From NCBI RefSeq assembly GCF_988243305.1, contig NZ_OZ547136.1: 64,000 bases of DNA; one strand, written 5' to 3'. Shown here in pieces: positions 36,889 to 38,754 of the stretch. Made by a program: the position numbers and the translations under genes. The first letter of the stretch is position 1, and every line of letters starts with the position of its first letter. A model generated the notes under the pieces. It was not told where the DNA came from, did not search any database, and was given only the letters and a program-made list of their open reading frames with translations.

Positions 36889-37257
36889 TTAGCCTGGACG
36901 CACTCTTTTTTGATCGCGTTTAGCCAGACCATCAACCACCAGATTCCACGAATCGTTGATCAGATCGCGAAGTAACGCTTCGGAGATTTCCTCGCCGGGA
37001 TACACTGAAATCCAGTGCTTTTTATTCATGTGATATCCTGGCTTAATGCTCGGGTATATCTGCTGATTTAACAGGGATTTTTGTGGATCGGACTTCAAAT
37101 TGATAAAGGGAACGCCGCGCAGCTCTGACGACAACATAAAAATCTTGCCGCCAATTTTAAAAACATCGAACTCCGGCCCAAAAGGCCAGCAAAGCTCGAC
37201 AAAGGGTAACTCAAGGGCCAGGCGTTTCGCCGTTTCGTGCAGTGATTGCTTATCCAT
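36889..37257 (-). CDS. ybdF: DUF419-family protein YbdF, 122 aa
   Basis: Start re-picked at [15 protein letters not shown] with AGGA RBS (ORF track is 40 codons longer). Confidence 0.7.
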
Positions 37258-37321
37258 AAACGTTCCTTTAGGCGAAGGAGAATAAGCAAAGTATGCCGCG
37301 AAGTTCGGCGATAATCGACGT

Positions 37322-37570
37322 TTAATCCGCCAGCGAGAACCAGCGTCGCCAGATAAAGCGCAGAACAAAATACTCAATAGCGCCCAGCACTAAAAACCAC
37401 AGACAAAACAATAAAGTGTAAAGCTGGCTAAGATCCATCAGATGGAACGTGGTCACCAGTTTTTGTGCCAGCGTCAGCCCCAATGCGGGGGCGGGAAGCA
37501 GCAGGCAAGAGAGGAAAGCCATCAGCAAAATGCCTGCTGCGGTGGTCAAGGTTTCTAAAGGGTGTTTCAT
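37322..37570 (-). CDS. ybdJ: small inner-membrane protein YbdJ, 82 aa
   Basis: 82-aa ORF with two hydrophobic segments between ybdF and ybdK. Confidence 0.7.
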
Positions 37571-37635
37571 AACATTGTTAAATGTAAGTTAAAACACCAT
37601 TGTCAGGGATATTCTTCTGTAAGGCAATTCCCGAC

Positions 37636-38754
37636 TTATTCTCCGGTCCAGATCTCACAATGCTTTTTCACCAGCCCAATTAGCGAGCCACCATCGGCGA
37701 CGAAATCACGCATTAGCTGCGCTTCATTCAGACCACTGACGACCTGGCGGTGCAGTGCTTCAATTGCGCTCGATGCGCCAATTTTATGTGCAGAAGGGGC
37801 GATTTTTTCCAGTAAACGCAAGGTGTCTTCCGTTAGTGACCGACGATCGCCAGTATGCGGATCGGTAATGACGCCTTCCAGCCCATAGCGGCAGGCCTGG
37901 AAACGGTTGAATTTATACAGCAGGTAATCTTTCTCCTGATGTTTAAATGGGCGTTCTGTCAGTAACCAGTGGGCGGTAGCCTGAATCAATCCTGCCATAT
38001 TTACCGCATGGCTAAGGGTTAACGGGGTATCCATTACCCGAACCTCCACCGTGCCAAAATGAGGACTGGGGCGAATATCCCAGTGCAGATCTTTAATGCT
38101 GTCGATCATCGTGGTGTAACTCAGGCAGCGAAACAGGGCTTCAAATTGTTGCCAGTCACTGACCCACGGCATCGGGCCATTATCGGGAAAGGCGGAAAAA
38201 ATATTCGGTCGTGAGGAGGCAAAACGCGTATCCGTTCCTTGCATATATGGCGACGCGGCGGAAAGGGCGATAAAGTGCGGCACAAACCGTGACAGGCCGT
38301 GCAGCAAATAAATGGCATCATCGCCACTGGCGCAACCAACATGGACATGCTGACCAAAAACGGTCGCCTGTTGAATGAGATAACCAAAGTTTTCCAGCGT
38401 TCGTTGATAGCGTTCGTTATCGCACACCTCCTGACGCTGCCATTTCTGAAACGGGTGCGTGCCACCGCCGCAAATTTCCAGATGATGATCTGCGGCTGCC
38501 TGCAATACGACTTTCTGCATCGCTGAAAATTGCCCGGCAGCCTGGTTGATATCACGGCAAACATCCGTCGCCAGCTCCAGCATACTTTCGGTGATATCGT
38601 GCTTTACCTCTCCGGCCGTGATCTTATTTTTAACCGCGTCAATCAGCATTGAAGAGTCCTGGCTTAAGTCATAGCCCGGCGGATTAACCACCTGCATTTC
38701 CAGTTCAATACCGAGGGTAAAAGGTTCAGAAACATGAAAATCGGGTAATGGCAT
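37636..38754 (-). CDS. ybdK: carboxylate-amine ligase (glutamate-cysteine ligase family 2), 372 aa
   Basis: 372-aa sequence characteristic of the YbdK carboxylate-amine ligase family. Confidence 0.85.

Follow-up and report, generated by a model that had tools for sequence, protein, structure and literature searches.

ybdK, ybdJ and ybdF of Escherichia coli: probably a lineage-specific juxtaposition and not a three-gene functional module

The genes ybdK-ybdJ-ybdF-nfsB-mscM of E. coli K-12 have been described as a five-gene read-through operon on the basis of strand-specific RNA-seq (Conway et al. 2014, PMC4161252). Sub-transcripts of this operon are regulated oppositely; the ybdK-specific one rises in stationary phase and the nfsB-mscM one disappears (PMC4161252). 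A figure legend in PMC5493358 marks a transcription start site for nfsB in the ybdF-nfsB intergenic region. For the protein crystallised as PDB 1R8G, to which YbdK is near-identical, weak gamma-Glu:Cys ligase activity was reported (Lehmann et al. 2004, as cited in PMC2588565), and our literature searches for newer functions of the YbdK family gave nothing past that 2004 activity. YbdF has its closest described counterparts in the YjbR/MmcQ ‘double-wing’ proteins (2FKI, 2KFP/3H9X and 2A1V). The ram locus of Salmonella, Klebsiella, Citrobacter and Enterobacter contains orthologues of ybdF and nfsB in the same order as in E. coli, flanked on the other side by ybdJ and often also by ybdK. An overlap of ramR with ybdF was noted earlier for Salmonella and Klebsiella (PMC3117140).

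The window, a stretch of 64,000 nucleotides, is E. coli chromosome; RefSeq annotates the same genes in an E. coli chromosome that is 100% identical, and nearly every complete E. coli genome has the 4-kb region, at 95-99% identity. The genes of the locus and the spacer central to the argument are as follows.

37636..38754, minus strand: ybdK, YbdK-family carboxylate-amine ligase (GCS2), 372 aa (open reading frame, RefSeq annotation and profile matches)
37322..37570, minus strand: ybdJ, 82-aa DUF1158 protein with two predicted transmembrane helices (open reading frame, RefSeq, Pfam and hydropathy)
37258..37321, minus strand: 64-bp ybdJ-ybdF spacer, the slot of ramA, romA and ramR in other Enterobacteriaceae
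36889..37257, minus strand: ybdF, MmcQ/YjbR-family protein, 122 aa (open reading frame, RefSeq and profile matches)
36142..36795, minus strand: nfsB, nitroreductase, conserved downstream neighbour of ybdF (open reading frame, RefSeq and Pfam)
34787..36034, minus strand: ybdG (mscM), mechanosensitive channel, last gene of the published five-gene operon (open reading frame and RefSeq)

The three open reading frames of the trio lie exactly where an earlier note on this DNA had placed them, with the sizes and shared orientation it gave, and its description of them as poorly characterised is right. Transcription runs from ybdK through ybdJ, ybdF and nfsB to ybdG; the trio is therefore transcriptionally upstream of nfsB, and the note's phrase ‘downstream of nfsB’ holds in plus-strand coordinates only. 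Genes, order and strand are identical to those of the K-12 operon and nothing material differs, the window's strain having two tandem copies of hokE/sokE upstream of ybdK. As the K-12 genes form a read-through operon, the E. coli trio can be co-transcribed, within a larger composite unit and not as a trio. The gaps measure 65 bp between ybdK and ybdJ, 64 bp between ybdJ and ybdF and 93 bp between ybdF and nfsB. All three are of intermediate length, unlike the overlaps or few-base gaps of tight operons. Three co-oriented genes are common in E. coli and co-orientation alone is not above chance. The gene run is real, already annotated in E. coli, known and ordinary.

Profile matches from Pfam and NCBIfam upheld the assignment of all three proteins to the carboxylate-amine ligase, DUF1158 and YjbR families. 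YbdK matches GCS2 (PF04107) over the entire profile (positions 1-291 of 291, 327.6 bits), scores 581.5 bits against the NCBIfam YbdK equivalog NF010040 (cut-off 425) and aligns over residues 1-372 with 1R8G (E = 6e-258). The full-length GCS2 domain and the GhExE signature of the Mg/ATP site (defined in PMC2588565) are common to both, the latter being present in YbdK as GIELE (residues 15-19, Gly-15 to Glu-19). In contrast to the glutamate-cysteine ligases, YbdK falls below the curated cut-off of every NCBIfam model for these enzymes that it matched: NF010043 (278.9 bits against 409), NF010042 (219.1 against 427), NF010044 (204 against 437), NF010045 (148.8 against 395) and TIGR02048 (28.9 against 249). 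YbdK should therefore not be classed as a true enzyme of the glutathione pathway. Among the matches listed, YbdK homologues extend down to about 62% identity and are all from Enterobacteriaceae.

YbdJ matches DUF1158 (PF06643) end to end (positions 1-79 of 79, 156.5 bits), and its Kyte-Doolittle hydropathy rises above 1.6 in two peaks, one around residues 7-35 and the other around 44-74. The family is tiny, with 617 proteins in 5.8 billion and 61 representatives at 50% identity; the gene was found in 172 of 100,044 species genomes. Most of the ‘distant’ representatives proved to be frameshifted fragments and were therefore removed from the query alignment. YbdF matches YjbR (PF04237, which we take to be the family formerly called DUF419) at positions 1-88 of 88 with 85.7 bits, and NF007603 with 260.5 bits (cut-off 183), placing it in the YjbR/MmcQ family. 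The match to the YjbR domain runs end to end, and the double-wing structures 2A1V, 2FKI and 2KFP are matched with E values of 1e-11 to 1e-5. The family name reflects structural resemblance only, and DNA binding by YbdF is putative. Unlike the wider YjbR/MmcQ family, the YbdF orthologue group is apparently restricted to Enterobacteriaceae and is linked specifically to ramR and nfsB.

Gene neighbourhoods were compared in 80 species-level loci anchored on ybdJ. The position of ybdK relative to ybdJ varied as follows.

27 of 80 loci: ybdK directly upstream of ybdJ
25 of 80 loci: ybdK upstream of ybdJ with an insert of 2-8 kb between them
8 of 80 loci: ybdJ, then ybdG, then ybdK (Buttiauxella)
1 of 80 loci: ybdJ directly upstream of ybdK with a 97-bp gap (Cedecea)
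12 of 80 loci: no ybdK within 6.8 kb or more
7 of 80 loci: arrangement not assignable, short upstream flank

Contiguous ybdK, ybdJ and ybdF occur in only five of the 80 loci, all Escherichia, and do not form a conserved cluster. The genes ybdJ and ybdF are adjacent in six loci, again all Escherichia; in 58 of the 64 loci that have both they are at least 2.2 kb apart, with romA, ramA and ramR between them, and in 13 of the 80 no ybdF is found within 7 kb or more. E. albertii retains ybdJ-ybdF but has lost ybdK, a GNAT gene standing in its place; ybdJ and its upstream motif persist. We conclude that the trio is probably a set of three genes that evolved separately, are controlled separately and came to lie side by side in one lineage, within the five-gene transcription cluster already known from E. 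coli, and not a three-gene functional module.

The earlier note had seen in the trio a compact, meaningful unit, implying a co-selected module of ligase, membrane component and predicted DNA-binding regulator. The shared orientation, the 64-65 bp gaps with no terminator-like site in either, the E. coli read-through transcript across the trio (PMC4161252) and purifying selection on all three genes (dN/dS 0.01-0.06 for each within Escherichia) would fit such a module. The neighbourhood comparison does not sustain it: synteny contradicts the unit in every genus examined other than Escherichia, and elsewhere ybdF is translationally coupled to ramR. Within E. coli itself about 6% of complete genomes have no intact ybdJ-ybdF, and 249 of 5,426 have no match to it whatever. 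In O89m strains an O-antigen locus replaces ybdJ-ybdF, with ybdK and nfsB kept (PMC6128206). We regard a co-selected module as highly improbable.

The conserved partners of ybdF are ramR and nfsB, not ybdJ. In 54 of the 58 loci with both genes, none of the 54 being Escherichia, the ramR stop codon overlaps the start of ybdF or lies immediately next to it; the ramR-ybdF layout was confirmed in Salmonella and K. aerogenes. In 59 of 62 loci nfsB comes next after ybdF. The window has no ramR-ybdF unit, and ybdJ lies 64 bp upstream of ybdF instead. Unlike the genera with a ram locus, E. coli has a chromosome without romA, ramA and ramR, which is why ybdF follows ybdJ by 64 bp and has a Shine-Dalgarno of its own (AAGGA-like, 37268..37264) in place of the overlap with the ramR stop. 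A search for the ram region in 5,426 complete E. coli genomes gave two chromosomal partial matches only, neither covering 80%.

In most of the other Enterobacteriaceae examined, ybdF is the second gene of a ramR-ybdF unit followed by nfsB, and the Escherichia lineage most likely lost romA-ramA-ramR. After such a loss ybdF would start 64 bp past the end of ybdJ, would have acquired a ribosome-binding site of its own and would presumably be expressed by read-through. The converse, an ancestral arrangement as in Escherichia with insertion of romA-ramA-ramR between ybdJ and ybdF in the other lineages, seems very unlikely to us. It would agree with the E. coli 64-bp spacer, in which comparison by eye with six Citrobacter-clade loci revealed no remnant of ramR or ramA, so that the case for loss over gain is purely one of parsimony. 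Against it, the same ram slot, orientation and ramR-ybdF overlap recur in Salmonella, Citrobacter, Klebsiella, Enterobacter, Kluyvera, Pluralibacter, Leclercia and others, and parsimony strongly favours one loss over the same insertion many times. These genera include the closest relatives of Escherichia in the family phylogeny. The direction is thus probably ram loss in Escherichia and not gain elsewhere.

The linkage of ybdF to ramR allows some speculation on function. YbdF might be a working partner of the RamR repressor system, held at a fixed ratio by translational coupling and sharing a xenobiotic/redox response with the neighbouring nitroreductase, for instance as an accessory protein that binds DNA or handles a ligand; the E. 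coli copy, still under strong purifying selection, would then be an orphan that outlived the ram locus and whose role does not depend on RamR. We consider this conceivable, though rather unlikely as formulated, and ybdF as a conserved partner of ramR is only a modest lead.

The juxtaposition reading also implies separate control of the genes. A scan of 36000-39300 detected neither a sigma-70 site nor a terminator in any of the gaps. The scan required nine of 12 consensus positions, a threshold that both putative promoters described below fail to reach; since it came back empty, phylogenetic footprints were used instead. These and the associated elements are listed here.

38785..38791, minus strand: CTATACT, sigma-S-type extended -10, about 30 nt upstream of the ybdK start (phylogenetic footprint)
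37602..37635, minus strand: weak hairpin just past the ybdK stop codon, overlapping the ybdJ promoter-like site (centroid stem, 6 pairs)
37599..37627, minus strand: ybdJ promoter-like footprint inside the ybdK-ybdJ gap (-35 TTGCCT at 37627..37622, 17-nt spacer, -10 GACAAT at 37604..37599)
37577..37592, minus strand: TTAAC-N6-TTAAC direct repeat with an 11-bp period, between the putative ybdJ -10 and the start codon

In 35 of 41 species loci a CTATACT precedes ybdK by 25-48 nt, and three more have CTATAAT; the flanks are unconserved. The motif resembles what we take to be the sigma-S consensus. In line with it, expression data have ybdK induced in stationary phase, together with otsB, fbaB, ecnB and ymdF, presumably all members of the sigma-S regulon. 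In O157:H7 at the growth transition ybdK is up by 2.98 log2 and ybdG down by 2.36 log2. A promoter assigned to ybdK in two papers sits inside the hok/sok repeat and may be that of sok. We suggest that ybdK, an ATP-dependent carboxylate-amine ligase, is driven by its own sigma-S-type promoter and is on in stationary phase and under stress.

Upstream of ybdJ, TTGnnn-17 nt-GACAAT (or GAAAAT) was present in 75 of the 80 loci, the spacer being 17 nt in every case. The footprint persists regardless of ybdK, which may be next to ybdJ, 7 kb off or deleted; the consensus scan had missed it because just eight of 12 positions match. Judged from this conservation, ybdJ, restricted to Enterobacteriaceae and with two predicted membrane helices, would have its own sigma-70-like promoter in the 65-bp gap. 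A similar TTAAC-type repeat occurs in 65 of 80 loci and, on the opposite strand, resembles what we presume to be an ArcA-type direct repeat. In a multidrug-resistant Salmonella mutant the ybdJ signal is up 33-fold. A MarA/RamA-type marbox, sought upstream of ybdJ in explanation of this rise, gave no convincing match in either orientation. The stop codon of the convergent ramA lies 22-37 bp from that of ybdJ, and antisense read-through from ramA may be an alternative source of the signal.

Folding of the three intergenic gaps gave nothing stabler than shuffled sequence (z-scores +0.16 to +0.95) and did not locate the internal terminator of Conway et al. The 80-nt segment with the hairpin past ybdK has -10.3 kcal/mol and a z-score of +0.95, no better than shuffled. 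This hairpin cannot be equated with the internal terminator of PMC4161252, and the scan did not call a terminator. An Rfam scan of 34000-41000 returned sok, ES036 and sub-threshold matches only, none inside the trio. As a counterpoint to separate control, the primary transcript seen by RNA-seq in E. coli spans all five genes (PMC4161252), so that the trio is co-expressed in this species.

It might still be that ybdK and ybdJ are functionally paired, with the small YbdJ anchoring the ligase in the membrane, regulating it or handling its product, and with ybdF unrelated. The two genes lie within 8 kb in at least 61 of the 80 loci and, as noted, ybdK is directly upstream of ybdJ in about a third of them. 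Adjacency in the reversed order occurs in Cedecea and also in Dryocola (a separate look-up, outside the 80 loci), and linkage that survives rearrangement is a classical hint of coupling. Several observations weigh the other way. In either order both genes retain a conserved promoter-like motif of their own, the inserts of 2-8 kb that split them in 25 loci carry unrelated pumps and ATPases, and 12 loci have ybdJ with no ybdK within 6.8 kb or more. In E. albertii ybdK is lost, yet ybdJ is under purifying selection. Family sizes also differ more than tenfold, with at least 6,600 GCS2 relatives against 617 YbdJ proteins, and general conservation of synteny in Enterobacteriaceae accounts for the proximity without a functional tie. 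We judge such a pair to be improbable. In most genera ybdK and ybdJ lie no more than about 8 kb apart, in one order or the other, which would fit a weak functional tie. On this linkage in both gene orders, a tie of YbdJ to YbdK is a second possibility, weaker than that of ybdF with ramR.

As it stands the finding is of little consequence, the genes, their families and the E. coli operon being on record; the useful outcome is a negative one. As the adjacency is confined to Escherichia, reading a function for any of the three proteins out of the E. coli gene order would mislead. The gene ybdK is better studied as a sigma-S stationary-phase gene, and ybdF together with ramR, ramA and nfsB, a locus through which Salmonella, Klebsiella and Enterobacter control multidrug efflux.

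The window is a piece of E. coli chromosome. When 4 kb around ybdK, ybdJ and ybdF (the trio) were used as a query, strain Z1323HEC0462 matched at 100% identity, and 5,418 of the 5,426 complete E. coli genomes gave a match. An earlier note had singled out the trio as a compact, co-oriented set, an observation that is confirmed as a whole; the span it gives is exactly that bounded by the ybdF stop codon and the ybdK start codon. The same note placed the trio downstream of nfsB. This holds only in plus-strand coordinates, since transcription runs from ybdK towards nfsB and the trio is thus upstream. 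The genes are arranged as follows.

38754..37636, minus strand: ybdK, 372 aa
37570..37322, minus strand: ybdJ, 82 aa
37257..36889, minus strand: ybdF, 122 aa
36795..36142, minus strand: nfsB, 217 aa
36034..34787, minus strand: ybdG (mscM), 415 aa

The intergenic gaps are 65 bp (ybdK-ybdJ), 64 bp (ybdJ-ybdF) and 93 bp (ybdF-nfsB). Domain scans upheld the family assignments. YbdJ matches DUF1158 and has two hydrophobic segments; YbdF matches the YjbR domain and the PRK10250 equivalog and has three solved structural relatives of the 'double-wing' YjbR type. YbdK has a GCS2 domain, matches the YbdK equivalog, is near-identical to the crystallised 1R8G protein and has the GhExE signature as PMC2588565 defines it. 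It scores under the curated cut-off of every NCBIfam glutamate-cysteine ligase model that matched. Mutants in gshA lack glutathione although ybdK is present, so the weak γ-Glu:Cys activity of YbdK is probably not what the enzyme does physiologically.

The genome scan was anchored on YbdJ because it is the least common of the three, with 617 members among 5.8 billion proteins and 61 representatives at 50% identity, of which many are frameshifted fragments. ybdJ was found in 172 of 100,044 species genomes; 80 loci were retrieved, and YbdK, YbdJ, YbdF, NfsB, YbdG, EntD, RamA, RomA and RamR were placed in each by tblastn. All 80 are from Enterobacteriaceae, two of them in evidently contaminated assemblies labelled as other genera. 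PYVH01000101.1 ('Marinobacter sp. B9-2', L004) holds an E. coli-type locus with a YbdJ 99% identical to that of E. coli; CACSKA010000002.1 ('Chryseobacterium sp. 18061', L009) holds a non-Escherichia enterobacterial type, ordered ybdK-ybdJ and then the ram locus, with a YbdJ 85% identical to that of E. coli. Both public assemblies appear contaminated or mislabelled.

ybdJ and ybdF are adjacent in six loci, all Escherichia, lie 2.2-6.3 kb apart in 58, and in 13 ybdF is absent within at least 7 kb. In the 58 separated loci the interval contains ramR in the orientation of ybdJ and ybdF, ramA and romA in the opposite one, and in some of them additional cargo. Extending every ramR frame to its stop codon placed the ramR stop and the ybdF start overlapping or at most 3 nt apart in 54 of the 58; the overlap is 11 nt in 27 loci, 4 nt in seven and 1 nt in 15. 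The exceptions are Pseudocitrobacter, with an extra inserted gene, and one Leclercia whose ramR is truncated. A 2011 paper had recorded the overlap in Salmonella and Klebsiella (PMC3117140), and we saw the layout again in Salmonella and K. aerogenes. On its other side ybdF is followed by nfsB at 53-314 bp (59/62 loci). We note that in Superficieibacter (L072, L075) nfsB follows ramR by ~160-170 bp with no ybdF between, so ramR and nfsB can stay neighbours after the ybdF link is lost. A true three-gene module is thus very improbable: ybdJ-ybdF adjacency is confined to Escherichia, and the ram locus intervenes in the 58 separated loci.

A Citrobacter romA-ramA-ramR query against the 5,426 complete E. 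coli genomes gave only two chromosomal partial matches, none with at least 80% coverage; plasmids account for the other 176 partial matches. In 153 complete genomes a plasmid fragment (hits H19-H26) carries a RamA-family regulator and a partial MBL-fold (romA-like) gene, sharing ~75% identity with the chromosomal copy of Citrobacter. A single loss of the ram locus in the Escherichia lineage is the parsimonious reading, since the slot is the same in the closest relatives of Escherichia and in more distant genera; because no recognisable ram remnant was seen in the 64-bp E. coli ybdJ-ybdF spacer, this loss is one that we infer.

That YbdK and YbdJ form a genuine functional pair has more in its favour, and is still unlikely. 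ybdK stands immediately upstream of ybdJ (64-133 bp) in 27 of the 80 loci and upstream with a 2-8 kb insert in another 25. The order is ybdJ, ybdG (opposite strand), ybdK in eight Buttiauxella loci, and ybdJ is immediately upstream of ybdK in one, from Cedecea (also in Dryocola, looked up separately outside the 80). ybdK is absent within at least 6.8 kb in 12 loci, and seven with a short upstream flank were left unclassified. The opposite strand of the E. cloacae insert (L060 484-7512) encodes an RND pump, a membrane-fusion protein and a P-type ATPase; in K. aerogenes (L082) the insert holds, besides a P-type ATPase gene, one with a NAGPA domain. In the E. albertii type strain NBRC 107761 an opposite-strand ORF for a 234-aa GNAT-like acetyltransferase (L048 7081-7785) replaces ybdK, leaving the final ybdK bases, the ybdJ promoter-like motif, ybdJ, ybdF and nfsB. 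The two genes share one neighbourhood, but selection maintains neither their adjacency nor their co-transcription. In a predicted 461-aa protein (P0122), encoded on an E. coli-like contig of 13.8 kb, a Nitroreductase domain is joined to a GCS2 domain. The protein shares 99% identity with YbdK across 93% of its length and may be a ybdK-nfsB fusion by deletion, or an assembly or gene-calling artefact.

The co-transcription experiment proposed in the earlier note already exists, since strand-specific RNA-seq of E. coli K-12 used the ybdK-ybdJ-ybdF-nfsB-mscM operon as a worked example (PMC4161252). Growth phase has little effect on the full-length transcript because that transcript sums two oppositely behaving sub-transcripts: one specific to ybdK, induced in stationary phase and ending at an internal terminator, and one of nfsB-mscM, from a secondary promoter, which vanishes in stationary phase (PMC4161252). 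Co-transcription thus holds for a five-gene composite unit and not for the trio as a unit. O157:H7 arrays across the growth transition agree (ybdK +2.98 log2, ybdG -2.36 log2), and a nitrofurantoin-resistance preprint names nfsB as fourth gene of the same five-gene operon. The trio is an already known and ordinary feature. The ybdK stop codon is followed by a weak hairpin, no better than in shuffled sequence.

Candidate control signals in the window are listed here.

38791..38785, minus strand: CTATACT, cross-genus footprint, putative ybdK promoter
37627..37599, minus strand: TTGnnn-17-GACAAT, footprint across the 80 loci, putative ybdJ promoter
37592..37577, minus strand: TTAAC-N6-TTAAC, ybdJ leader
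37268..37264, minus strand: AAGGA, putative ybdF Shine-Dalgarno

Aligned across genera, the 110 nt upstream of ybdK are almost unconserved save CTATACT, which 35 of 41 loci have at 25-48 nt from the start codon (three more have CTATAAT). The hallmark of sigma-S promoters is TATACT with a C in front of it at -13, and the motif suggests a sigma-S-type ybdK promoter. Such a reading fits the stationary-phase induction, a peak at ybdK in RpoS-holoenzyme SELEX and the induction of ybdK by a LolCDE inhibitor together with otsB, fbaB, ecnB and ymdF. These four we take to be sigma-S regulon members. Upstream of ybdJ, TTGnnn, a spacer of exactly 17 nt and GACAAT (or GAAAAT) occur in 75 of the 80 loci whatever stands further upstream, which points to a promoter of its own. 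Both footprints fall below the threshold of a consensus promoter scan. In 65 of the 80 loci a TTAAC-N6-TTAAC repeat of 11-bp period follows; on the opposite strand it presumably resembles the ArcA-type TGTTA direct repeat. No obvious Shine-Dalgarno sequence precedes ybdJ.

Another sequence, TTGCCT-17-TACCAT, has been named the ybdK promoter (PMC3946193 and a 2024 preprint). It lies at 39158-39186 and 39662-39690 (minus strand), within each hok/sok copy and some 400 and 900 nt ahead of ybdK, and may instead be the sok promoter; the conserved CTATACT, 30 nt upstream of ybdK, is the better candidate. The hokE/sokE toxin-antitoxin locus (38978-39985, plus strand) is a tandem duplication of 504-bp period with 96% identity between copies. 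Both match Rfam sok (84.1 and 82.4 bits; gathering score 59), and the RefSeq annotation has two hokE genes here. Further on, the entD-fepA intergenic region contains a match to the sRNA ES036 (CssrF) at 40679-40720 (minus strand; 42.2 bits, gathering score 37.6), adjoined by sub-threshold naRNA4 and Ysr224 matches.

Pairwise dN/dS within Escherichia is 0.01-0.06 for ybdK, ybdJ and ybdF, like nfsB; all three code for proteins under constraint, ybdF even without ramR. The trio genes are dispensable. Of the 5,426 complete E. coli genomes, 5,093 cover the ybdJ-ybdF segment to at least 80% and 249 lack it; the O89m E. coli strains of one study carry an O-antigen locus between nfsB and ybdK in place of ybdJ-ybdF (PMC6128206). 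Deletion or overexpression of ybdJ in Salmonella left antimicrobial susceptibility and invasion unchanged.

The interpretation in the earlier note is only partly supported. We consider it probable that the trio is an Escherichia-specific juxtaposition of three separately evolved, separately controlled genes rather than a functional module. ybdK, coding for an ATP-dependent carboxylate-amine ligase, would be a sigma-S-class gene of stationary phase, and ybdJ would encode a lineage-restricted two-helix membrane protein from its own sigma-70-like promoter. ybdF would ancestrally have been co-translated with RamR as a partner, adjoining nfsB on its upstream side. The E. coli gene would be the orphan of that ramR-ybdF unit, having gained its own Shine-Dalgarno and probably being expressed via read-through. 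The near-universal ramR-ybdF overlap is the sole lead here worth specialist attention; going by it, YbdF would belong to the Ram multidrug-response locus and not with YbdK and YbdJ.
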